Source: Neolecta irregularis DAH-3 (Eukaryota). Taken from it: 37,678 bases of DNA. The DNA lies in assembly GCA_001929475.1 (NCBI GenBank), contig LXFE01000207.1:1-37678 (forward strand), read 5' to 3'. The position numbers were made by a program, and so were the translations under genes. How positions within the stretch are numbered: position 1 is the first letter of the stretch; every line of letters starts with the position of its first letter. Below, in pieces: positions 8,253-36,528 of the stretch. The notes beneath the pieces are model-generated. The model made no database searches. It was given only the letters and a program-made list of their open reading frames with translations, and was not told where the DNA came from.

Positions 8253-11200
8253 ATGTCTCTCCCAAACGCAGCTTCTTTAAAGGCCCAGCCCCTTAGTCAG
8301 GTATGTCGTATTTTTCCCTTGAGTATCTCCCTGTCGGTGACGTGGGAAGCACGTATACCGTTTTAGGCCTGTATATTTCCCCCTGGATCCATCAACTCCT
8401 TTACAATTGCTGACTGGACTAGCCCTCCGGATTCGCGGACAGCTTTAGTAATCGATCTACCGCTGGCAACAATTCTCAGCTTGAAGAACGAAACTCGCAG
8501 CCTTGGGCTACTGTTCCGCAAGGTCCTCAGAAATCATCTTCTCCATGGGCAATTAATAGCGTTCGAGCGCCAATTGGAAGTCGAGACGGTCAATCAAAGA
8601 ATGGTATTGTTAGAGAGTACTTCACTTACTAAATCTTCCCCTCAGATACCATAAACGTCCTCAGTGGATTTCCTGAAGACCAAAACCGTGCTCGAAATCG
8701 AAACTCGGCTGATTTCGAAAGTTGGAGTCGAGGGTTGCCACAGGGCACTTGGGGAAATGACACAGGAGTTGGTATGGAAGATAATTCAAGGTCCCTCGCA
8801 GCCTCCGCCAAACGACGTAGTGCTATCGAGCTTGGAAATCACAATGTATCTGGGCTTGTCGGGTTTCCCTAATCATGATAGTCACCTGAATTCCCCCGGG
8901 CTTCATCACCATTGAACCCGCTAGCTCGTTCACGCCAGCCAAGCGGAGCACAGGCTTCTGGTTTAATACATTCTGCTCAAGATTCTTATAACACCGGTGT
9001 CTCGGCATACAGTGATCTTGATGACCGGCATCGCGGTCGAAGCCTTGACATTGAAGAGGTTCATCCTCTACCCAAAATCCACCATCGCTTTACTACAGCA
9101 CCGAATCCAGATGATGAGGATCGTCATCTTAGTTCGGTCCTCCATAGTGCTTTAGAAGATGAAGACTCGCAGTCTATTCGACAAAGAGCTTTTCCAGGTG
9201 TTGCGCAAACCACTGGTAGTAGCTTGGCTCCTACTCGAGCAACTTCTCGCTATGAAGTGGTGCAAGCTCCCCCACGAGCAAGTTCCACACCTCCAGTTCA
9301 TCCATCTCTCCAGAATTTTGTTCATCCATCTGGACGAGCCTCACCTCTTGCTTTTAATCGAAGTTCTCGTGGGGATGAGGCAGATATGCTGGCGGGACTA
9401 CAACAAATGAGCATGAACTCGGTACGTGGATTTTCCCCAAATCTCATGCCGACTTTCCAGGATGACCATGAAGCCTATGGTATCGACAGGCGAGGCCTGG
9501 CCGGTGGTTATGGTCACAGTGTAACTAGTCCCTATGCATCGGGGGCTGGGTATTACCCAGATTATGGCTTTCAACGAGCGATTCTTCCAGAACCGGAAGA
9601 TTCGGCTTATTCTCGGGGATATTATGCAGGCGATGCACTCTATACGCCACCTCTTGATGTCCCGGGTTATGCCAGTGGGTACATGGATTACCGTCCTCGA
9701 GGATTCATCCGACCGGCTTCAGTTGATCCTATTGGAGAGCTCCACTGTGCTACTCCTTATTATGGCACTGGTAATATATCACCTCTACGACTGCAGAATG
9801 CATCTCCACTAGGTCGATCAGTTCAAGGTAGCCGTCTTTCCATCACGCAACCAATGATTTTATAGGACGACTGCCGCCTGCTACAATGCGTGATCCTTTG
9901 CTTCCACTGTCTATACATGCAAGACATGCGAGTAATTACGAACAATATGGCGCAAGTGTGCGGTCGTATTCAGATCCTTTTGGGCCGGCTCTTCACAATC
10001 CCAATTCCGCACGCCGATTTGATGAGATCAGCCAGAATCTTAGGAGCCCGCTTTTAGAGGAATTTCGCAATAACAAGAATAAAAAATACGAACTCAAAGT
10101 ATTTATCTACTCTTGCCGTTCTGATCATGTAGGATATATTTGGACATATAGTCGAATTCAGCGGGGACCAACACGGATCTCGGTTCATTCAACAAAAACT
10201 TGAGACTGCAAACAGTGATGACAAGGAGGTTGTCTTTAATGAGATTCTGCCAAATTCACTACAATTGATGACTGATGTTTTTGGCAATTATGTTATTCAA
10301 AAGTTCTATGAACATGGGAATCAGATGCAAAAAACAGTTCTCGCTCGTGAAATGGAGAACCATGTCTTGCAGTTATCTCTTCAAATGTATGGTTGCCGTG
10401 TTGTTCAAAAGGTTCCTTCAGATTATTACCAAGTTGACGAACTAGGCTCTTGAACATGTACTCGTTGATCAGCAAGCGGCTCTGGTCAAAGAGCTTGAGG
10501 GTCATGTTCTTCGTTGTGTTAAAGATCAGAACGGAAACCACGTCATCCAAAAAGCGATCGAGCGTGTCCCGGTTCACCATATTCAATATATTATCACGGC
10601 CTTTCATGGCCAAGCATATGCCCTTGCAACTCATCCTTACGGATGTCGTGTAATACAACGAATGCTAGAATTCTGCAAGGAAGCACAGGAACCTCTTCTT
10701 GAAGAGCTTCATCGATACATGCCGAGTCTCATACAAGACCAATACGGGAACTATGTGGCTCAACACGTACTCGAACAGGGTGCTCCTCACAACCGTACAC
10801 GGATTATCAATGTTGTTCGAGGTCAGGTTTTGACACTGTCGAAGCACAAGTTCGCTTCAAATGTAATTGAGAAGTGTATTTGTTATGGGAGTATTGAGGA
10901 ACGACAAGCACTAATCGACGAGGTTTCTGAGCCTACAATGGATGGGTATGGTCATTTAAGTCATATTGCGCTCATCGAGTTAGCTCTATCCCTCTCGTTG
11001 CCATGATGAAAGACCAATTCGCTAATTATGTTGTTCAGAAGATGCTTGATGTTACGGAAGGAGATCAGCGTGATGATCTTGTTCAGCGAATTCGACCACA
11101 TCTGCAACAACTCAAGAAATATACCTATGGAAAACACCTCGTTTCTAGTATGTCGTCTTTTCCCTATAAACACTTACAATGTAGTTGAACGTTTGATGTA

Positions 11201-11736: not shown

Positions 11737-14700
11737 TCATAAAAGGTGAGATAAATCGAAAAATTGCTCAAAGCGCATCATACCAGCACCCTCCTCCGTT
11801 TCGCGATCGCTCAAGGTAACACTGTCCCCGGATGGCTTTCTCTTTGGCGAAGTTTTGGACATTGGTGGGACAGGGGATGCTGGCGTTGGAGCATTCAATG
11901 ATAGAATCCGCTCTCTGATTCCGTTGATCTTGATCAGACGTTCTCTCCAATTTGTGACGTATTCCTCCTTGTGATATGCTTGGGCAAATATATCGGCGTT
12001 CAAAGCTATATTGCGTACGAAATTTGGTAATGCTGGAGTGTGAATCATCTTGAACTCGTAGATTGGGCTAGTTTCCGGAAGTTCTGGCTGGCATTGTAAC
12101 TCAACTTTAAACGAAATAGATTCCTGTTCCATTTTGTATGTTCTGGAAGCTGAAGTTGGAGTTATGATGATATTGACGAAATTGAACTGTCCTGGAATTG
12201 TATCGAAATGATACGGAATTCCAGAGTCGTTATAAATAATATTGACGAACGAATTTCCGATATGACGTTTCTTCATTGTGCATTGAGGATCGTGTTCAAG
12301 ATCTGTAGGCATCAAAGTGCAGGTATGATAGATAATTTGCGTGATCTTGTCGCTCCAAAAATATGCAAAAGCGCCGTCGTGGTTATCTTCGGTATCTAGA
12401 CCTCCTGTGTAGATATCTTTGTTGTCTTTCAAGAGTACAAGATTTCCAAGCCCACTCAAGAACTCCATGTACTCACAACTTCCCACTCTGTTGGACAGAA
12501 TTTGTTGTTCGGTAGTCTGCCCTTTTCCGACGTACAAGACCCCCATTTTATGGAAATTGACAACAGGAATGCGATCGAAGACAGAGATACTTCGTCGAGT
12601 ATTGTCGTCATCTGGCAATGGCATTGGCTTTGCATTCGGCAACATATTTGGACGAGACATCAACTGCATGATGAAAAACCCAGGTAACATAGGTTGGCTC
12701 ACGGCATGCACATTACTCAAAGTATTATCTCAGAAATTAGCAGCCTCAAGTATTAAGACATACTTCCTGCCGATGATGATGATGAAAGTGCCAGTCCTGG
12801 CTTAATCACAGACTTGAACGTGTATCTACCTGTCGTTGCCTATTCGTTAATTGCAAATTGAAAACATGACCAGAAGACATACAGGCCGTCTAATAACAAC
12901 ATCAAAGGAACTGCTTGGTCCGTGGGAAGTTACTGTAATCAGCGAGTTCCCATATATCCACGTTTTGGTCAAAGATTCTGCAACATACGTATCGGGATTA
13001 GCTGAACGCAATTCGACATCGGTAAAACAGAACCATTCTAGCAAATCTAGCATGGCTTGATTCTGTTCATCAATCTTTTCTGACGACGAATTCGAGTTCA
13101 ACAACCCGCGAACAATGGAAGCAAACTGTTTTTGTCTGTCAGGGATACGCATAGCCAGGAACCAGGTCGCTATTACATCGTACGCTAACGTGAAGACGTA
13201 CCTTGAAAGGGCGAGCTGCGCAGTGCTAAGTCGACGATTGCCGTAGGCATTAGACGGACCAGTGGATTTTACTGACTGCGAACGAGTAAGCAAAGTCCCT
13301 GATAGAAAACTCGCTAATCCGTCCGATCTTGAAGGAGACGAGTTTGTATGCGATATGTACTGATGAGCGATTCCGAAAAGCATCCGGAAATCTCCTTCCG
13401 TAAAGTTGACGTAAATATCAGGAATACGAGCTAGGCCGATCAGAAATTCCAGGATATGTACACTCAAAGGCGTCGAGGTAATCATGCGAGCAAGTTTAGG
13501 TAGGATAGCTGGCATTCGTTTACTCATCGACAGTGGTAGCTCATAGCAACAGATATATAAAGCATGTATGGCGGCTTTGGCGGATTGCTTCCATTTTTCC
13601 AAGACCATCTCGAATGCCTTGACGATGTCGTCTTCCTGTGATTTTTGAAAAATATCATGGTAACTTATAAGGACAGATATGATTTGGACAAGATGGGAGA
13701 TTAGATGATCCTGTCGAACTTCTGCGGATAGTCTTAGGTCAGGAAAATCTACATTTAGTAGCTGCGAACATAATAAACGCTGAAGTGAGTCAATCTGAGC
13801 CTTTGAGGAGCAGAACAGATGTTTAGAACTGAGTTGCGCGCTGAGTCGACTAATTATTAAAAAATAGATATCCCCAGATTTTTCCGATGTCAGAATACTA
13901 ATAACCGTTTGCAGCCAATTTTCGATCGGCAAAAATGTCTCTAATCGCTCTGAAGACGGATCGATGACATCTTCATCGTCGAGAATAACCTCCGGCTTGA
14001 TATAAGATATCAACCAAGCATTCGGCTTGACACATCGATCATCGCTCGACAAAGAGTATTTCAGAAGATGACTGATGGTAGAATGCGGAGAACAGGATTG
14101 GCTGCCAGAGGACACAGTTTTCGACCGCGAGCGAAGGGGGGAATTATCATTCTCTGACCTTCCTTTCTGGAGATCCGACCGAAAAGAATGTGTAGATTTT
14201 CGACGTTCAGGGCCATTTGAAGACTCGTTGCGGCCCACTGAAAGAGCACCAGTGTCTTCAACGTAAGGTGAAATCGAAAGAAAATGCCTAGAATTGGCCC
14301 GCAGCTGCAATAGAACATCTATTACCGGCGCACGTAATTGAGACGGTAAACCAAACATCCCGGCAACCTTCAAGAGCACATCATATACCTTGAGCGTTCT
14401 TTTTCCGTCAGAAGCTCGACAACATGTTCTGAAAATATCAACAAGGCCTTCTGCAGCTGGTTCTTGAACACTGAATCGCTCAGCACATGAAAGAATTCCA
14501 CGTTTATTCTTTTTTTCGTTTGTTAAGGTAGAATCCATCGATTTGGTGGATGGTCGATGAGACAACAGTGAGAGATCAACAAGTTGATCATCGAACGCAT
14601 AAATGCATCCAGCCAGCAGATTTATGATTTTATCGAACGTAAGATCATTACCTACTCCCGATACGCCCACGGCAAAGTCAAGGAGTCGTCGAAAAACTGC

Positions 14701-16676: not shown

Positions 16677-19600
16677 ATGGAAGCGCAGCTGCTTCCTTGC
16701 CTCCAGCAAACCCTGAATCCTGTCACAGCAAGGAGAGGTTGACCCCCAGTAATTTCTGCAGCACTGATTATGCAGCCGAGCAGGCTTTACGCTCTGCAGA
16801 GTGTCAATCCGGCTTCGCAATCAGCTTGTTGAAACTCGTTGCTTCATCCAATGTTGATAATTCATCAAGGCAAGCGGCTGCGTTATTTTTTAAAAACTTC
16901 ATCAAAAGAGCCTGGAAGGTTGGTATATGGTACGTCGATTACTGATAAAAAAGGACGATGAAGGAGACAATCGCATTCCGGCAGCAGATTGTGCTGCCGT
17001 GAAGTCCGAGATAATTGGTCTAATGATCTCTTTGCCTCCAATACTCCAAGTTCAATTAGGAGAGGCTGTCACTATTATTGCCGATAGCGATTTCCCAGAA
17101 AATTGGCCAGAGTTGATGGATGTACGTGGCTTCAATTTATCCATTCATTTCTTGACATACAAAGGATTTAGTGTCACGCCTAAGTCCAGATGATATGGTG
17201 GTTAATAATGGTGTCTTGCAAACCGCTCATTCAATCTTCAAGAGATGGAGGTCCCAATTTCGTTCAGATGTATTGTTTACGGAGATTAAATTTGTTCTCG
17301 ATCGATTTTGCAATCCGTTCTTCGATCTCCTCAAAGTACCCGCTGATGCCTAATATAGCTGGATTGCTGATCGTCTCAGAGAGTTGACGAGCTAATCGAA
17401 CAGAATGCGCGCAATGCCGCTGCTCTGAGAGTTTTGTTACAAACTTTATTCCTGATATCCAAAATTTCATTCGATCTCAATTGCCAGGATCTTCCGGAAT
17501 TTTTCGAGGACAACTTGACTCTTATATTTGGGACGTTTCATAAATATCTTACGTATACAAATCCTCTCATGGAAACAGACGTACATGTGTTATTATTATG
17601 CATGACCTAACCTTACAGGATGATGAGGAAACTGGGCCTATTGAAAAAGTTAAAGCAAGTATTCTCGAGCTCGTCGATCTTTACACTATGCGTTTCGAAG
17701 AAGATTTTTCCATGCTTCCAGAGTTTGCCAACACTACCTGGACACTCCTGACGTCGACTGGTCTTGAAATGAAACACGATATAGCAAGCTCATTCATTAA
17801 TGAAGACTAACAAGAAGCTTGTTAGCAAAGCACTCAGTGTTTTGACTTCTGTATCCAAAAGCGCAAAGCATGCCGCCCTTTTTGCATCCGAGGATGTCAT
17901 GCGACAAATCGTTGAAAAGATCATTCTGCCGAATATGTCCCTGCGGACAAGTGACGAGGAGCTTTTTGAAGAAGATCCGATCGAGTTTATTCGCAGAGAT
18001 CTCGAAGGTTCCGATAGCGATACAAGAAGGAGAGCTTCTGCCGATTTTATTCGTGGACTGATGGACAAATTTGAAAGCATGATTACTGGCATTGTCATGA
18101 GCTACATTCAGCATTATTTAAACGAATTTCAGGTCAATCCAACGGCGCATTGGAAATCACAAGATACGGCAATATATCTCCTAACTTCCATCTCTACTAA
18201 AGGCCATATTTCGCAACACGGAGTTACTTCAACCAACATTTTGGTCGACATAGTTGACTTCTTGGACAAGAATATTCTTCCTAGTTTGACGGCACCACTT
18301 GATTCCATTCATCCTATCCTCAAGGTTGATGCTCTCAAGTTCGTTTATACTTTTAGAAATCAAGTGTGTCTATTTCTAAGGAGTCTAACTGACCAGAAAA
18401 AAGCTAACCAAAGATCAACTGGCTTCTGTTCTTCCTCTATTTGTCAATCATCTCGAGTCTAGCAGTTATGTTGTTTATACATATGCTGCTATCTGTATTG
18501 AACGAGTACTTTTCTTAAAGAGAGATAACGCGTTTGTTATCCTTGAACCCGATATTGCACCTCATATACGAACTTTATTGGCAAGTTTATTCAAACTTAT
18601 TGAACGGGGCAACACGACTCAGAAACTGGCAGAGAACGATTTCCTAATGCGATGTACATTTATTTTGTACAATCGGTGTTGCTTACTGTTAAGGTGTCAT
18701 GAGAGTGATTATATCTAGTCACAATGCTGTTGTTCTGCACGCTCAGCTGGCCTTGGCTCATTTAAATGCTATTCTTGTAGAAATCAGCAAAAATCCTTCC
18801 AATCCTCGCTTTAATCATTTCACATTCGAATCACTAGGTGCTCTCATTCGGTTTACGGTCCCAACATCACCCGATTTTGTTTCTCAGTTTGAAACCGCGC
18901 TTATTCCCACCTTTCAATATATACTTGTCCAAGATGTCGCTGGTATAAACGCACGCTAGAAGAATCTAATATTCCCAAGAGTTTACTCCTTACGTGTTCC
19001 AGTTACTAGCACAACTTCTTGAAGCTCACAATGAACCAGGTTTGACAGAACAATATAAATCATTTCTCGTGCCATTCCTTTCCCCAAGTCTTTGGGAAAG
19101 TAAAGGTACCACATTTTTTTAAATCGCCACTGATAGCTTTAAGGAAATATTCCAGCTTTAGTTCGACTTTTAGAGGCGTATCTACTACGTGGCTCAGAGG
19201 ATATCATAGCAGCAAAGCAAATCGAACCACTTCTCGGAATCTTTCAGAAATTGCTCGCATCGAAACTTCATGATCATCACGGTTTCGATCTTTTACAGTC
19301 GATGTTTATTCAACTTCCTCTGTATGTTATTCTATCTTTGAAATTATTAATAGTCTTAGCATAGCCTTACAGCCGTACATAAAGCAAATTGTCATCCTAC
19401 TGTTTACTCGACTGAACGCCTCACGAACTGAGAAATTTACTCAACGTTTCGCATTACTTATATACCTCTTAATGGCTCTCGAAAAACCAGGTTTTGGGCC
19501 GAATTTTGTAATCGCATCTATGGACGAAGTGCAGCCAGGGTGAATTCGTTAAGTCTGGAAAGGAAAACTGAGATCTAGGATTTTTGGACAAGTCTTTGAA

Positions 19601-20096
19601 AACTTTGTTCTTCCAGAAACCCAAAAGATCCACGGCAGTCTAGAACGAAAAACGACATCCATTGGATTGACCCGCCTTTTGGTTGAGTCGGAAGCCATGC
19701 AGGCCGGTGGGCCTTATGCTGAGTTATGGTGAAGTCATTGAGCATTCATAACTCATTAACAGGCATCTAACCCTCATGACAATCTTGAAGCTCTTCGAAC
19801 TACCTCAAGAAGCTTTTGATGGACAAGACATTGAGGAAATTGATCCGGACTTGGATTTCCAGGTATCCTTTGCAAAGCTGGGCACTGCGGCCAGGCTGAA
19901 GCCGGATCATTTTGTGGCAATTCCAGATCCGAAGAGATACCTTGCAGAAAGACTCGGCCAGTCTAATCAGTCCGCAGGGGGAAAGGTAATGCGTGTACTA
20001 TAGGTTTACGCTTATGAACAGATTGCAATTGCAATTCAAACCAGACTTCCTCAAGATGCACAATCAGTTCTATCATCTTATGGCCTTGTTTTCTAA
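16677..20096 (+). CDS. CSE1: Importin-alpha re-exporter Cse1/CAS (exportin-2), 14 introns, one GC-AG
   Basis: MEAQLLPCLQQTLNPVTARRAEQALRSAE, IBN_N motif RQAAALFFKNFIKRAW, DLNCQDLPEFFEDN, ELFEEDPIEFIRRDLEGSDSDTRRRAS, ISKNPSNPRFNHFTFESLG. Stop TAA at 20094-20096. Confidence 0.95.
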
Positions 20097-20224
20097 GAAT
20101 CCAGCACCCTGATTCTAGTCGCATTCATCTTTCTAATTACATTTACATATATACCATTACATGGATGTGACCCCCATATATAACTCTTCTGAGATTGGTT
20201 TTGAATGAAAAAAATCCCAACATC

Positions 20225-22457
20225 TTAAAGAATAAGTTCTTGTGATACCTCTTTTAATTTGGTCCTCGTTCTACGTCGAACGTGGCGGAGCAGACTCATG
20301 ACTGCCGCTGGTGTCACACCCTGAATGCGTTTCGCAGAGCCAATCGTTTCTGGGCGGAACTCTTCAAGAAGCCCAATTTCCTCAGCAGAAAGATGACCGA
20401 TATCTCTGTACTTGAGATCGCTAGGCAAGATGAATGACTCCTCGCGCAAATAAGATCGAACATCAGAAGCCTGACGTGCTATAAATGCAGCATATATACC
20501 TGACTGGTTAGAAGATTAGCAGATATTGCAATACCATCGACACTGAATCGTTGAAGTAACCTCGAGGGTACCTCGGATAATCCTGGCACATAGGGGATCA
20601 AGTCATGCGGCTTGACATGTGCATAGCGCATCATTTGAAAGGCACTGCGTTTGATACCATCTAGGTTAACAGCGAATCCACGAGCACCCCATTCTTGAGG
20701 ACTCAAAACAACCTGTTCAAGGCACTTGCGACCCCATTCAAAAGCGTTTTCGTCTTGTTCGAAAGCTCTCCATCTCGTTTCACCAATTACACCAGCTTCT
20801 CTTCCGAGTCTAGTCAGCCTAGTATCCGCATTATCTGACCGAATCGATAACCGGAACTCCGAGCGAGATGTGAACATTCGATATGGTTCATCTACTCCCT
20901 TGGTCGTGAGATCATCGACTAATACACCGATGTATGAATTAGTCCGTGAAAGTGTGACTGTCGGTTTGGCGAGAGACGACAAACCCGCATTGATACCAGC
21001 GAGAATTCCCTGTGAATTAGTCAAATCGGATAGATTAGTTACTTGCGCAGCGGCTTCTTCGTATCCTGTTGTACCATTTATCTGTCCAGCAAGCCACAAA
21101 CCTTTAATTCTTTTGGTTTCCAGCGTCGAGTTAAGTTCTCTGGGATCAATGTGGTCGTACTCGACCCCATATCCAGGACGAAGCATAGTCACCTTCTCAA
21201 GGCCTGGAATAGTTCTCAACATCTGTTGTTGAACATCCGCTGGCATTGTAACACTTATTCCATTAGGATAAATAACTGGATCGTCAATTCCTTCCGGCTC
21301 GAGCCAGATTCGATGTCGAGTTTTCTGTGGAAATCGAATAACTTTACTTTCAATTGATGGACAATATCGAGGACCCCTGACAGACTCTCTAATATGAATT
21401 GAAAGATGTAGATTCTCACGTAACAAAGTATGAGTGAGACCTGTAGTGAAGGTTTCGTGTGTTTCAAGTTGGTCAACGATATCGACCTGATCATTGAGAT
21501 AACTGAAGGGTAATGGTGGGTTATCCCCTGGTTTAGCCACTAATTGTGAGAAGTCGATCGAGGACTTCGCTAAGCGAGGGGGAGTTCCGGTTTTCAGCCT
21601 TCCAAGTTTGAATCCTGCCTCACGAATCGATTTAGATAAACCAAGAGATGCTTCTTCATCGATCCGGCCGGCTGGATATGCCTGAAGGCCTAAATGTCAT
21701 TACCTTGCCTTGTAAGAACTTTCCAATATGTATTTCTCCGCCAAGGAAGGTACCCGTCGTGATTATTACATGGTTTGTCCAGATGGTCTCACCTGATTCT
21801 GCGCAAATGAGGATGATGATGTTTAGAAGGGTATACCAAGCAGTACACCAGTCACCTGTCCTATTCTTCGACTATTTCCTTCCGCAGCCTGATATTCTAT
21901 AATTAGGTCTCGCACACTCCCCTGCCTTATCGATAGATTTGGGCAAGCCTGAAGCTCCTCTTGCATATACTTTCTGTACAACTTTCGATCTATCTGAGCC
22001 CGAGGTCCCTTTCATATGTCAACTTCCGAGCAATGATGCCTACCCAGACAGCTGGGCCCTTAGACTTATTTAGAACATGGAAAGAAATTCCAGCCTTATC
22101 TTCAACATGAGTTTAGGTAAGAGAACCAGAGCATGCCACAAACTCTTCCACACAAGCCATCCAAAGCATCAATCTCTCTAACTAATGTTCCTTTACCAAT
22201 GCCACCAAAAGAAGGATTGCAACTCATCTCGCCTGTGCTATCAGAGAAACCTCACCCCAAGACGCACCGATTGTATCAAGTTTCTGAGTTAATAAGACAG
22301 TTGACGCTCCAGCTCGTGCGGCTGCTGCACACGCTTCCGACCCGGCATGACCTCCTCCAACAACTAAAACATCAACCTTCGGGACACTCGAGGCAATCGA
22401 AGCGAAAGAGCGGAAGAAGATAGACCCATATCTTTGGCGAATAGAAGTTTGCAGCAT
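20225..22457 (-). CDS. MTO1: Mitochondrial tRNA U34 modification enzyme Mto1 (GidA/MnmG family), 7 introns including one GC-AG and one GA-AG
   Basis: Mitochondrial-like presequence, then [90 protein letters not shown] and [14 protein letters not shown]. Confidence 0.95.
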
Positions 22458-22743
22458 CTAAGAGCAGTTCCACATGAAAGCGCTTACCAATTACAGGCGC
22501 GAAATAAAAGTTTAATATATCGATTAAATTTTTTTTACATAATCATAACAATAATAGATTTAGCATTTCGTCTTTTAGAGATGTATATAATATATAGGGC
22601 ATAGCATCTGGCTCGCATTGGCAGATTTTCGAAATAGGCCTGTGAATTTCGGAGGTCTGGCAGAACCGTGCCTAATCTCCGCCGCGGGCTCAACGTTTCC
22701 GTATTGCATTGTTGTCTTTCTTTCTCCACCAATTCCATTCCAG
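22458..22743. promoter_or_regulatory. Putative bidirectional promoter region for MTO1 and VRG4 (286 bp) with AT-rich, TATA-like tracts
   Basis: Head-to-head start codons. TATATAATATATAG near 22585. Confidence 0.5.
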
Positions 22744-24218
22744 ATGTCTAGCTCAGAACCAATTAGAATGAATCGAATGATCGAAGATGATGATGAACCC
22801 AGATCGAAGACATCCATTTTGGGGAGTTCTTCAACTCTACAGCAATTTCTAAAGTACTTGAACCCCTGATCGAACAATTGAAGAAATATTGGACTTATAC
22901 AACTGTAGCTCACCTTCCTCATCAATTTTCTCCTACTGCGCTGCGTCAATTCTTATGACTCTCACGAATAAATACGTAGTATCAGGTTTAGACTTCAATC
23001 TCAACTTCTTCCTGTTGTGTGTGCAGGTAGGAATTTTCCGAGGTATTACAAGGCCACTGATGCGCGCTTAGAGTCTTGTGTGTACAGCTGCAATTGCTCT
23101 CTGCAAAAGGTCCAACCTTATCACTTATCGTGATTTCAATTCCACGGAAGCTAAGAAATGTTCGACCCTCACTTTTCCGGAAATAACAATTCCTAGGGCT
23201 TCCGATCTCTTGTTTGTTAGTCGTCATGATTTATACCAGTAGTAAAGCGTACTAGGCGTTTCAGGCGAACCTAATAATGTAGACTTCAGTTTCTGTCAAT
23301 TCCGGTCTACACCATCTTTAAAAATTTAACCATTATTCTCATCGCCTACGGCGAAGTTCTGTGGTTTGGAGGTTCAGTTACAGGGCTGGCACTCTTTTCA
23401 TTCGGATTGATGGTTTTATCCTCAATTGTTGCCGCCTGGGCCGATATTAGCGTTGCTGTAACGCAGTATACTTCCACAACCGATATCATTAATGCTGGAT
23501 CCATTACCATGAGCAGTCTCAATGCTGGCTACTTTTGGATGTTTGTGAATTGCGTCTCCAGTGCTACATATGTCTTGAGCATGAGAAAGCGTATAAAAAT
23601 CACCAATTTTAAAGACTTTGATAGTGCGTTTCTTTCAATTTGATCTGCTAATTTATTCTTTAGCAATGTACTACAACAATATGTTGAGTATTCCAATCCT
23701 CTTTGTCTGTTCAATCTTCTTAGAAGACTGGTCAACTTTCAATGTTGAAAAGAACTTGTATGACTTTCTTGTCATCATACAAATTAAATTTAAGTCCTTC
23801 TGGCGAACGCTTCGCTTTATTATCCGCAATGATCTTTTCCGGACTCTCGACCATCGGTATCAGTTATACTTCTGCATGGTGTGTTCGTGTTACATCTTCA
23901 ACGACCTACAGGCATGATTTCTGTTCTTTGAGTTAGACTGACCGCTCAGTATGGTCGGTGCTTTAAACAAATTGCCAATCGCTCTATCTGGTCTCCTATT
24001 CTTTGATGTTCCCGTCACATTATTCTCTGTAACTGCTATTTTTATTGGGTTTGTAGCCGGTCTTGTTTATTCAATTGCCAAAATGTATGATTCTCGGGTT
24101 GTTTCCACGTATATACTAACAGTGAAGTAATCAACCGAAGTCCAGTGGTCCTGTTCTCCCTACTACCAACATCAGCAGCGCTAGCAGCCAAAGCGTTCGA
24201 GATGCAGTGAAGATGTAA
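22744..24218 (+). CDS. VRG4: Golgi GDP-mannose transporter, 8 introns, one GC-AG
   Basis: [76 protein letters not shown] (GALNK motif). Introns 22854-22908, 23027-23071, 23160-23196, 23249-23282, 23624-23663, 23758-23794, 23912-23949 and 24085-24127. Confidence 0.93.
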
Positions 24219-24432
24219 AACCTTTACCCATTTTATAGTAGTGTTTAGGGAAGCGTCTATGAACAAAACCACAATTGTATACGATAATTATTTCTGAAGT
24301 ATACTCAGAATACCTTCAGGAGGATTTATGAAATCTCTTTGGTTTATTGGAGTACTTGGGATACGTTGGTGCATTCGCGTGACTACGACTACTGAGTCCT
24401 TTGTTTCCTGACTTCACTCTTTCAAATTTGGG

Positions 24433-25507
24433 ATGATGACACTGCTCAACCTCTTCAAAATATTTATTCGTCCCGTTCTCGATGATCCCAATTCTCGTAG
24501 GATATTCTTGTTTCTCATCCTGAATTTGTCCTTTATGTTCGTCCAGATGACGTATGGAATCATCACAAATTCACTAGGTCTGATTTCGGATTCCGTCCAT
24601 ATGCTGTTCGATTGTATTATCCCTCACGATCTTTTTAAGTTCATGTTAATTGAAATCAGGTATTGCACTAGCAATAGGTCTCTTAGCTTCACTTCTTTCC
24701 CATCGGCCAAAAGATTTGAAATATCCGCATGGGTTTTCTAAAGTCGAAACTCTCTCTGGTTTTGCAAACGGAGTATTTCTCATTTTAATCAGTGGAACCA
24801 TTATATTCGAAGCAGTTGGTCGGCTAAGAGAACCAGAAGAGATGAATACTGACAAATTACTGCTCGTCAGCATTATGGGCTTGATTGTCAATTTAATTGG
24901 TGTCGTTGGATTCGGACATGGACATGCCCATCATCATGGAGAGAACGAAGATTGCAATCATTCCCATGCACATTTGCATGCTCACTCAGTTCATTCTACT
25001 GACAAGCTTGCCGCAAAATTCTCGCCTGCTATTAGCCAATTCGACGATCATCACAGTTCACTCGCTCATAGCCATCACGAGCATGACCACCATGATCACA
25101 ATACACATGGGATCTTCCTACATATTTTGGCTGATACTCTCGGATCCTTAGGAGTCATAATTTCTACTTTACTGATCCATCGTTTTCATTGGCTTGGATT
25201 CGATCCTCTAGCCTCGATATTTATTGCCGTTCTCATATTCCTCTCTGTTCTTCCGCTTCTCTCGTCCTCCGCGAGCTCTCTCCTTTTAGTAAACAATGGA
25301 AAGATAGAGCACAATCTACGGGATGTTCTTCAGGACATTTCAGAGATGCACGGGGTAGCTGCAATCCAGAGAATGAGATTTTACAATGGCTGTGGAAGTC
25401 TTGTTATCAAAGTTACTGGGGAAACTGAAGGTGTTAGAAGGCTTGTTAGACGTCGGTTAGAAGACGTTGGATTCAAGCGCTGTGTTATTCAGGTCGAACG
25501 CCTTTAA
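24433..25507 (+). CDS. Cation diffusion facilitator zinc transporter (Msc2/Cis4/ZnT5-7 type, short form), 1 intron
   Basis: NSLGLISDSVHMLFDC, ETLSGFANGVFL, His-rich loop, GIFLHILADTLGS. Intron 24614-24659 restores FDC-IALAIGL. Confidence 0.9.
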
Positions 25508-29077: not shown

Positions 29078-30845
29078 ATGGTTCAAGAGCAGACGTCATG
29101 GCTGGTGTACTTCTGTGCTCTATTTGCTTCCATTGGAGGGTATACCACTTTCTCGTTCATTTACCGACATCTAGACTTATTTTTGGATTCGATGTTGGTT
29201 CTATATCAGGTCTTCTCAACATGCAAGACTCAAAAGACAGATTTGGGTATTTGAAAGCTTTCATCTATCTTAATTGGAAATAGTGATGTCCCGGACAAAG
29301 CTCATCCTGGACACTTTGACTTCGGAGATTTCCGAACTGGTATAATAGTAGGTGCCTTTTCTGTGGGAACCTTCCTCGGATGCATGATCGGTGGGCCCTC
29401 GGCAGATAGGTTAGGTAGACGCAAGGCTCTTATCCTTTGGAGCGCGATATATGCCGTCGGTGTTGTCATTCAAGTATTGCTCACAATCTTGGACGACAAA
29501 TCTGATTGCCAGTTCTTCTCCGTCGATAAATGGTTCCAGATTGCTATTGGACGTTTCGTCTCAGGTTTAGGAGTTGGATCCCTCAGTGTCCTTGTACCGC
29601 TTTACACCAGTGAACTAGCACCCAAGAAAATCAGAGGGATTCTGGTCGCGACTTTGCAACTGACTTTCACTTTTGGAATATTCCTCTCGTATATTGTTAA
29701 CTGGGCAACAAAACAGAGACAAGGTGCAACTCAGTGGCGTATTCCAATTAGCTTGTGTCTATTTTGGGCCGCCGTTCTTGGTATTGGAATGTGTTTTGTT
29801 CCTGAAGCTCCCAGACAGCTCTACATGGATGGAAAGTACGACGAATGTAAAAAGGTTCTTGCAAAAATTCGTGGCCTCACTTCGGATGAAAATCTGGTTC
29901 AAGAAGACTACAATGATCTTGAAAAGACGATAGAAACTGAACAAAAGTCTGGGAAAGGTTCCTGGAAGGAGTGTTTTACCGGTGAACCACGTATGTGTTA
30001 TCGGACCGTTCTCGGAATGACCATTCAATCTGTGGGGCAACTCTCTGGCGCTAGTTTCTTCTGGTGTATCCCTATCAATTCTCCATTTTCAAACTGATTG
30101 AAAAGATTACGGCGTAAATCTATTTTCAACCATTGGTATGGGAGATGCATTTGTCACCCAGATCACCATCGGAGGCCTTCTCTTCTTCAGTACCATTGGT
30201 GTTGTCTTCCTCATAGACCGATACGGACGACGAAACTGTCTCTTCTGGGGGGCCGCTTGGTGCTCTGTTATGCTGGTTATCTTTTCAACTTTGGGTCTCA
30301 ATATGACACAGAATGACGGAACAAACAATCCCAAGATTGCATCCGCAATGATCTGTATGCATTGTCTTGAATTTCTTGTCTAATCTGTAGGCTTTGTTTG
30401 CCTCTATATTCTTGGTTATGCTACAACTTGGGGGCCTTGCGCTTTCGTCGTCATCTCCGAAACATATCCTTTCCACCTTCGAGCCAGGTGCATGTCCATT
30501 GCTACTGGTTGCTCCTGGCTGTGGAATATTTTCATCGCTCTCTTCTCTAAAGCGATTCTCAACAAAATTAAGTATTCATATGGATTCCTCTTCGCTGGAG
30601 CCAATATAATTGGATGCATCACTGTTTACTTCTTTCTCTACGAAACCAAGGCTCTTACTCTTGAACAAGTCAATGAAATGTACATGGAACCTAAGCTAAA
30701 GCCATGGCAATCACACCGATGGATTCCGGCACGAGGAGAAATGAAGCAAAATAAAACAGCTAATTCGCTTCCATCTTCCTCTCGAAACTCCCTCGACTTG
30801 AGCTATACTGATATGGAACTTGAGAAAGTTGTATCAGAAAATTAG
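29078..30845 (+). CDS. MFS sugar porter (hexose transporter-like), 5 introns
   Basis: FASIGGLIFGFDVGSISG, ADRLGRR, GRFVSGLGVG, ELAPKKIRG, VPEAPR, IDRYGRR, WGPCAFVVISETYP and YETKALTLEQV. Confidence 0.92.
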
Positions 30846-32610: not shown

Positions 32611-33694
32611 TCATATATCAAATGGTGGTGCCGTGACAGAAGTGGACGTGGGTTTATTTACGTTTTCCGTATACAAGTTGTTGAAATTTCCTGGTGGGGA
32701 GTATTCGCAGACTAAATGATAACGTCCAACTGGGGAACTACCACAAGATGTCACCCAAGCACAGCCCAATTGCGTAGTACTTTGCCAGACTCTAGGAAAA
32801 TGAGCGCGATTTCAGACAATGAGAAACTTACACTTGAGTAAAATGACCTGTCACTCCACTACCAGTACTCGTGTCAAAATTCCAGTTTTTAATCTCTGCA
32901 TACCACATCCAGACATAAAATGCAGGATTATTACCGGATCCAGCTGCAAGATTTTCCCCATAGATGTTGTTCGAGGTATGTGCAAACCCGCACGTTTCCG
33001 CATTCTTCATAGCAGCAGCAGCTAATGTAGCTGACCAAGTCAACGCTGGAGCATTGTGGAGCGCTCGATATTTGTTATGCTCGGTCAGAATGGTCTGTTG
33101 AATGCTGATCGGGGTTGTAGGCAAGGCTGTATGTGAGGCTGTATGTGAGGCTGAATGCTTGACTGTATGCGAGGCTGAATGCTCGGCTGTATGAGAGGCT
33201 GATTGCTTGACTGTATGCGAGGCTGAATGCTCGGCTGTATGTGAGGCTGATTGCTTGACTGTATGCGAGGCTGAATGCTCGGCTGTATGTGAGGCTGAAG
33301 GCTTGACTGTATGCGAGGCTGAATGCTCGGCTGTATGTGAGGCTGAATGTTTGGCTGTATGTGAGGCTGTGTGCTCTGTTGTATGCTTGGCTGTATGTGA
33401 GGTTGTCGACAACGTTGCCGACTTGGGAAACGGACAAGTGATGCCGTCTTTTTTCACCGAGCAGAAGTTCCAAAGCTTTTCACACACCAAGTTAAAGTAA
33501 TTAGTACAACTTCCGATGTCGTCCTGCTTTCTTGACGCATGACAGGTATTAACAATCATGAGACACCGTTCAACCGCAAAACAACACTGAGCGTTAGAAG
33601 ATGTTGCATTGAGGTGGTAAGAGTCGTAGGGAGGTAAATTTAATGAGGTGGCAACCAAAGCAAGAAGCGAAATCGCAACAATGGAAATCTTCAT
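32611..33694 (-). CDS. Secreted CAP/SCP/PR-1 family protein with an N-terminal 8-Cys domain and a His/Ser/Ala repeat linker, 1 intron
   Basis: Signal peptide MKISIVAISLLALVATS. CAP motifs HNKYRALHNAPALTWS, YGENLA, WYAE, GHFTQVVWQSTTQLGCA (after intron 32792-32831) and VCEYSPPGN. Stop TGA at 32611-32613. Confidence 0.92.
33125..33400 (-). repeat. Coding minisatellite: 23 x 12-bp units with 24-bp and 48-bp higher-order periods
   Basis: Plus-strand units GGCTGTATGTGA / GGCTGAATGCTC and variants encode (SHTAEHSA-SHTVKxSA)n. Confidence 0.92.
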
Positions 33695-34059
33695 ACTGAG
33701 AAAGATATATATGTTAAGCGGGCAATCCTTTAAATAGAAAGACAGATGAGAAAGCTGAAATCGGACGTTTTTCTGCAAGCGGATTCATTCAAAGGCACAT
33801 CTCCGAATACGAAACGAATGTCCCATATGCGGCAATCGAAATATTCTGGTGGCTTGTTAAAACTGTTTCTGCTTTTGGCAGAGCGAGTGCCGAAAAATGT
33901 TTCGGCTGAGAATATGCAATAGTGGTGGATCAACAAAGTTGACAAGACGCGTGTGAAAGAAATTTTTGTCCGATAAGCCACATATACTAAATCATACAAA
34001 ATGGAACGGGTGAACGAGCAAGAAAGACATCGCCCAAAAAAATGCCGCTGGAAGAACGA

Positions 34060-36528
<2,469 letters not shown>

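Follow-up and report, generated by a model that had tools for sequence, protein, structure and literature searches.

The fifth intron of an MTO1/GidA-family gene in Neolecta irregularis DAH-3 appears to begin with GA instead of GT. The gene lies on the minus strand of contig LXFE01000207.1, whose 37,678 nt make up the window analyzed here, and we put the probability that the 34-nt segment at positions 21690 to 21723 is a genuine U2-type GA-AG intron, spliced out of the MTO1 transcript, at about 0.87. The segment is a further case of a rare, already documented class of introns, and no new kind of splicing is proposed. On the minus strand the letters run ...CATATTG, then GAAAGT...CATTTAG, then GCCTTC, and both letters and coordinates agree exactly with those of an earlier first-pass annotation that singled out the site. 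In full, the upstream exon ends in ...GGAGAAATACATATTG (as a longer stretch, ...GGCGGAGAAATACATATTG) with its last base at 21724, the intron reads GAAAGTTCTTACAAGGCAAGGTAATGACATTTAG from 21723 down to 21690, and the downstream exon starts with GCCTTCAGGCATATCCAGCCGGCCGG. The intron thus has G at +1, A at +2 and AG at its 3' end, and it appears to be removed constitutively. Its donor, GAAAGTTC, bears no likeness to the U12 box, for which the consensus is [AG]TATCCTT.

The need for excision is evident from the protein. If the segment is retained, the frame is altered and a stop is reached (open reading frame 21656 to 21871, ending ...RPDR), while excision of the 34 nt rebuilds the conserved IHIG-L stretch within an intact MTO1 frame. 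The spliced message is 1,986 nt long and holds an uninterrupted frame of 661 codons. In the Pfam profile PF01134 (GIDA, 391 positions), exon 5 ends at position 158 and exon 6 covers 161 to 375 from its residue 2 (E 1e-77), so that the split Gly is position 159 and the following Leu position 160, without a gap. Of the 120 homologues listed, the 76 that reach 590 aa were aligned, and 71 of these are gapless across the junction. The other six junctions of the gene are gapless in 25/25, 75/76, 74/75, 76/76, 76/76, and 76/76 of the homologues that cover them, making all 7 junctions collinear with homologues. The annotation's claim that removal of 34 nt is required to rebuild the MTO1 motif is borne out by the profile positions, the 661-aa frame and the homologues, and also by the transcript-derived joint described next.

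Two sequencing runs of one study, X1 (organism code A) and X2 (organism code B), both guessed to be DNA in kind, provided contigs that were compared with window positions 18500 to 24500. The X2 contigs omit 20 short segments of this region, and 13 of the 15 skips that were listed are bounded by GT..AG when read on the plus or the minus strand. Because they lack the introns of the region, we take these contigs to derive from spliced RNA. In record 9 of X2, a contig of 14,207 nt, position 21688 is followed directly by 21723, with 34 bases skipped and 2 bases ambiguous; this join yields the same mRNA as the excision of 21690 to 21723. In the contig's own coordinates, the joint falls at 13558/13559 and the next piece begins at 13635; the 76 letters in between correspond to 21723 to 21798, containing exon 5, and leave no surplus at the joint. 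Two further piece borders, 22099 and 21837, coincide with predicted edges of intron 2, which is of the GC-AG type, and of intron 4. The joint can be drawn in three equivalent ways on the gene strand, AA..GG, GA..AG, and GG..TA, of which GA..AG is the only one that combines G at +1 with a 3' AG, and the junction is assigned to it by parsimony.

The non-canonical A itself is seen in the DNA data. The X1 contigs are collinear with the window, and from 20687 to 24500 record 8 of X1 (8,419 nt at a word depth of 425.9) agrees with it, with 0 differing letters, and has A, on the gene strand, at 21722. It comes from Logan, an independent de Bruijn re-assembly of DNA reads. Were the A a sequencing or assembly error, the true donor would be GTAAGT and the intron canonical, an idea with some appeal in that a T at intron +2 would create a perfect consensus donor and that X1, the sole DNA run, is possibly the source of the assembly itself. 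The re-assembly, at a word depth of about 426, nevertheless returned the same letter, with no alternative contig at 21722. Low-depth variant contigs do appear in X1 at 20626 to 20716, and variants are therefore not simply hidden in this run. The re-assembly excludes a slip of the assembler at 21722, though not a problem shared by the whole library, and we regard an error at this base as improbable.

Several points weigh against the GA-AG assignment. The RNA origin of X2 is read from its missing introns and not from the run label, and its organism code is not that of X1. The X2 contig is without the intron and hence gives no direct view of the +2 base in the strain from which the RNA came. If, as may be the case, X1 and the assembly go back to one sample, the A depends on one DNA data set. 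Splicing efficiency cannot be read from contigs, and minor isoforms could go unseen in them. In record 9, overlapping transcripts of the two strands are fused into a chimera, which at the 3' end of MTO1 follows an antisense GT-AG join at 20476 to 20511 and not intron 7. Lastly, the ancestral donor is not observed, and the sole relative read at the DNA level (the fungal locus L001, discussed below) is intronless at this position.

Two of these points bear on specific rival explanations. With differing organism codes and a donor that X2 does not display, the RNA might come from another strain or a close species (organism B) that has a GT donor, the A being a mutation that cripples MTO1 in the strain of the window. 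However, the 8 listed X2 pieces, 2,730 nt in all, contain 0 mismatches, which indicates an identical or near-identical strain, and there are no differing letters elsewhere in 18500 to 24500; a lone difference placed exactly at +2 in a 6-kb region is unlikely. A crippled MTO1 would also sit poorly with 661 intact codons and 7 collinear junctions, and the 5/5 match of the rest of the donor to consensus fits a site that has been kept functional. A strain difference is accordingly judged highly improbable. The second rival holds that the 34-nt skip is an artefact, produced by template switching of reverse transcriptase or by a mis-joined contig. Template switching is among the explanations for GA-AG junctions discussed in PMC7072748, and the chimeric make-up of record 9 across genes lends the idea some weight. 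Against it, the joint has just 2 overlapping bases, the segment resembles local introns in its length, its branch motif and its 3' AG, its removal restores the frame and exact collinearity, and 5 homologues show an intron-consistent insertion at the same place. It would be surprising indeed if all of this had come from an artefact.

A functional message might alternatively be made through a different junction, and all donor-acceptor pairs at the site were enumerated. The first-pass annotation had noted that a GC donor would give a 19-nt intron and a 5-residue insertion, and this is correct: splicing from 21708 to 21690 is in frame and inserts KFLQG. It had also dismissed the internal GT donors as out of frame, which holds for GTTCTT and GTAATG to the acceptor at 21690, but its list missed two in-frame GT options. 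One, of 64 nt, starts with GTACCT at 21753, ends at 21690 and deletes conserved residues; the other runs from GTAATG at 21703 to the CAG at 21682, is 22 nt long and breaks collinearity. The appeal of the 19-, 22- and 64-nt junctions is that all three keep the frame. None of them is seen in X2, whose contig skips 34 nt; a cDNA with the 19-nt GC intron or another junction is an outcome that the annotation had named as refuting its reading. Moreover, 19 and 22 nt are far below the 33 to 43 nt of the supported local introns, and while the 64-nt option deletes residues and the others add or alter them, 71 of the 76 homologues are gapless. Use of any of these junctions for the functional mRNA can hardly be credited. 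A-to-I editing of the donor was considered and ruled out by reasoning, as it would yield G-I (read as GG) and not GU.

The GA-AG intron is otherwise well formed. The 5' splice site consensus complementary to U1 is G/GTAAGT, the slash marking the exon-intron border, and the donor at 21723 departs from it at +2 only, as the annotation had stated. When position -1 and positions +3 to +6 were scored in 21 introns supported by RNA or homology (17 GT, 3 GC, and 1 GA), the GA donor matched at 5 of 5 positions, the 17 GT donors at 0 to 3 (median 2) and the 3 GC donors at 3 each. The chance of a 5/5 match is about 0.02 per intron, taken as the product of the column frequencies in the 21-intron table. 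Judged from its letters, the high match in the rest of the donor looks like compensation for the mismatch at +2. The annotation's further remark that length and TGAC branch site resemble those of neighboring introns also stands: at 34 nt the intron is of standard length, and the putative branch A lies 7 nt from its 3' end, where neighboring introns have CTAAC-, CTGAC- or CTAAT-like motifs 3 to 12 nt from theirs (with one exception, whose only motif is 31 nt away).

These features can be assembled into a mechanism, in which U1/U6 compensation, branch-point use, efficiency and GT ancestry are as we infer them. Most likely this is an older intron that began with GT and underwent a T-to-A change at +2. 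The G at -1 and the AAGT at +3 to +6 would be likely to pair with the 5' end of U1 and later with U6, and the strength of this remaining 5' site, far better than that of the weak GT donors nearby, probably offsets the mismatch and keeps the site recognizable. Given the standard intron length, the normal 3' AG and the TGAC branch motif 7 nt before the intron end, both catalytic steps could then proceed.

Homologues were also compared at the intron position. In 5 of the 76 (P0037, P0044, P0045 and P0049, and separately P0048), a 17-residue insertion stands exactly between IHI-G and L, starting G-M-L-V or G-K-I-N and ending F-F-V-G (...C-T-D-F-F-V-G) or C-T-T-G. Insertions of this kind would be expected if an in-frame 51-nt intron of the same position and phase were read through, which suggests that the intron position is common to the window gene and other ascomycetes. 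As GGN always encodes Gly, the +2 base of these putative introns is not deducible from the proteins. A scan of metagenome contigs for DNA of relatives gave 80 loci, all at most 61% identical except L001, a fungal locus 67% identical over exon 6 and the only one read. At its positions 2440 to 2520, L001 is intronless at the IHIG-L position, and intron 5 is therefore not universal in fungal MTO1; an apparent intron is present near its N-terminus. In a maximum-likelihood tree of the window MTO1 model and 25 of the 120 homologues, the window protein falls among the ascomycete rows, and a 100/100 split sets it apart from two Agaricomycetes. It sits on a long end branch (0.74) and may belong with either a group that contains Taphrina deformans or a Pezizomycotina group. 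The data fit an ascomycete that branches deeply and is dense in very short introns.

The coordinates of the gene and of the splicing features discussed here are collected in Table 1. A search with exons 6 and 7 returned thousands of GidA/MTO1 proteins, the best at about 60% identity and the named ones being fungal MTO1. Nothing near-identical to the window protein was among them, from which it follows that the proteome of the source organism is not in the searched collection. Given the fungal best matches, the position among ascomycete rows and the 7 spliceosomal introns, the gene is a nuclear fungal MTO1 ortholog and not a bacterial one, with a product of the MnmG/GidA/MTO1 family of tRNA uridine-5-carboxymethylaminomethyl modification enzymes that is predicted to be mitochondrial. 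The GIDA FAD-binding domain is present over its full length, with matches in exons 1, 5, and 6, and PF13932 occurs in homologues. The donors of the gene comprise 5 GT, 1 GC and 1 GA. Intron 6 (21010 to 21042, minus strand) is 33 nt long, in frame and free of stops; left unspliced, it would insert 11 residues and leave a frame of 405 aa open, and a gene caller could overlook it.

Table 1. Positions of the MTO1 gene model and of the non-GT splice features in the window
Feature	Positions	Strand	Remarks
MTO1/GidA-family gene	20225-22457	minus	661 codons and a stop in 8 exons; the 7 introns measure 33-38 nt
MTO1 exon 1	22268-22457	minus	Pfam GIDA profile 1-35
MTO1 exon 2	22137-22232	minus	gene model
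MTO1 exon 3	22044-22099	minus	gene model; X2 piece ends at 22099
MTO1 exon 4	21837-22008	minus	gene model; X2 piece starts at 21837
MTO1 exon 5	21724-21798	minus	75 nt, ends with first Gly base; GIDA profile 136-158
MTO1 exon 6	21043-21689	minus	647 nt, ends EEAAAQ; GIDA profile 161-375; X2 piece 21042-21688
MTO1 exon 7	20535-21009	minus	matches PF21680, GidA C-terminal helical domain
MTO1 exon 8	20225-20499	minus	gene model
MTO1 intron 5, probable GA-AG spliceosomal intron	21690-21723	minus	34 nt, phase 1, Gly codon split G/GC
5' splice site G/GAAAGT	21718-21724	minus	equals G/GTAAGT save at +2
Non-canonical A at intron +2	21722	minus	T on the plus strand
Branch-site-like ATGAC	21696-21700	minus	putative branch A at 21697, 7 nt before intron 3' end
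GC-AG intron 2 of MTO1, GCATGC...GAAG	22100-22136	minus	37 nt; gapless in 75/76 homologues; X2 piece ends at 22099
GC-AG intron, GCATGA...CTGACCGCTCAG	23912-23949	plus	38 nt; neighboring plus-strand gene
GC-AG intron, GCAAGC...ACTAACAAGAAG	17784-17817	plus	34 nt; CSE1/exportin homologue

Record 9 also offers a view of transcription around the gene. It spans several genes on both strands (18500 to 22099 of the window) with all introns removed, which implies that the genome is very compact and that its transcripts overlap. Over the 3' end of MTO1, the segment removed in X2 is a 36-nt GT-AG intron of the plus strand, 20476 to 20511 (GTGCTA...CCTGACTGGTTAG), in place of the overlapping MTO1 intron 7 (20500 to 20534, minus strand). 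Read on the MTO1 strand, it is a CT-AC 'intron' that would shift the frame off the conserved C-terminus. A spliced antisense or convergent transcript thus predominates over the MTO1 3' end in X2, and this transcript may be a long 3' UTR (untranslated region) of the CSE1 homologue. Fungal 'CT-AC' introns have been explained by antisense transcription (PMC7072748), and 20476 to 20511 is a concrete example.

Three GC-AG introns accompany the GA-AG intron in the window. That at 23912 to 23949 corresponds to an X2 joint of 23908 to 23947 with 3 ambiguous bases, which becomes GC..AG on a shift by 3. The one at 17784 to 17817 lies outside the region compared with RNA-derived contigs and rests on homology: on yeast Cse1 (1wa5_C), exon 17619 to 17783 aligns as far as residue 307 and exon 17818 to 18363 from residue 308 onward, and there is no GT within the 17784 to 17817 stretch. 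All three donors read GCA[AT]G, and their consensus match of 3/5 equals the top of the local GT range. The 20 RNA-supported joints include 2 of the GC-AG introns (for one, the evidence is the border of a piece) and the GA-AG intron. The annotation had proposed a spliceosome that tolerates T, C or A at +2, and in the window this is literally so (GT, 3 GC-AG, and 1 GA-AG), but acceptance of C at this position is general to U2-type spliceosomes. Acceptance of A, present here, likewise has precedents, one of them in a fungus (PMC3577648).

How unusual the window is depends on its total number of introns, put here at roughly 60. A GT-only gene-structure run gave about 57 GT introns with unreliable borders (exact in 3 of the 7 RNA-supported CSE1 introns). 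The ab initio intron census, based on codon-usage dynamic programming and ORF-joining scores (ORF, open reading frame), was too noisy for other purposes, control dinucleotides being 'used' no less often than GC or GA. In fungi generally, GT-AG accounts for 98.715%, GC-AG for 1.009% and others for 0.257% of introns (PMC7072748, Table 1). Against this baseline, 3 GC-AG in about 60 introns (about 5%) has a p of about 0.02 in a window that was chosen for its GA intron, and the GC-AG excess is no more than suggestive. No second GA-AG candidate in the window survived inspection. The candidate at 29253 is actually a GT-AG intron at 29248 to 29283, that at 35300, by a Trm4 motif, is a GT-AG intron with donor GTTTGT, and for that at 10439 a GT donor at 10412 is available instead.

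It is possible, but rather doubtful on the support of one 37.7-kb window, that the +2 requirement is relaxed genome-wide, with GC-AG several-fold above about 1% and GA-AG recurring by way of the other donor positions and intron length, as a fungal counterpart of Oikopleura and Eurytemora. Such a relaxation would possibly be tied to a changed U1, U6 or Prp8; an Rfam search of the window returned nothing, including no small nuclear RNA genes. If a high share of non-GT introns did hold true across the genome, the lineage would be a fungal model of relaxed 5' splice-site recognition. Elsewhere in the window, a long open reading frame at 32828 to 33784 (minus strand) contains tandem repeats of SASHTAEH / SASHTVK(P/Q/H), followed by a C-terminal part that appears to resemble CAP/PR-1-type secreted proteins.

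Gene callers and RNA-seq aligners restricted to GT-AG and GC-AG introns would frameshift or split MTO1, a gene of an essential pathway. In classic mutant substrates, a U-to-A change at +2 allows the first step of splicing and blocks the second. Unlike those stalling mutants, intron 5 of MTO1 would be a clean natural +2 U-to-A donor that completes both steps, and the site is a handy substrate for testing how far U1/U6 pairing compensates.

Several known systems resemble this one in part. The human FGFR genes and ITPR1 contain GA-AG introns with an otherwise U2-like consensus (PMC4176328; PMC7072748), and like MTO1 intron 5 they combine G at +1, A at +2 and a 3' AG; their efficient removal has been verified by cDNA. 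The GA site of FGFR reportedly needs a canonical GT six nt upstream as well as downstream intronic elements (PMC4176328; PMC7072748), whereas the six exon bases upstream of MTO1 intron 5 are ATATTG, without a GT, and the intron is only 34 nt long and appears constitutive. Among fungi, GA-AG is one of the non-canonical donor-acceptor pairs found with RNA-seq in Fusarium graminearum (PMC3577648), which belongs to another lineage, Pezizomycotina; the available part of that report makes no claim of compensation at other 5' splice-site positions. Tolerance of a +2 mismatch to U1 by the major spliceosome is shared with GC-AG introns, although about 1% of fungal introns have C at +2 and A at +2 falls inside the 0.257% of 'others' (PMC7072748). 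Genomes rich in such introns are those of Oikopleura dioica and Eurytemora affinis, where thousands of GA-AG introns outnumber the GC-AG introns of the same genomes (PMC7072748) and the GA donors have conserved flanks (AG upstream, A downstream) and are in routine spliceosomal use. Both are animals in which GA-AG exceeds GC-AG, while the Neolecta window has 1 GA-AG and 3 GC-AG among its roughly 60 introns.

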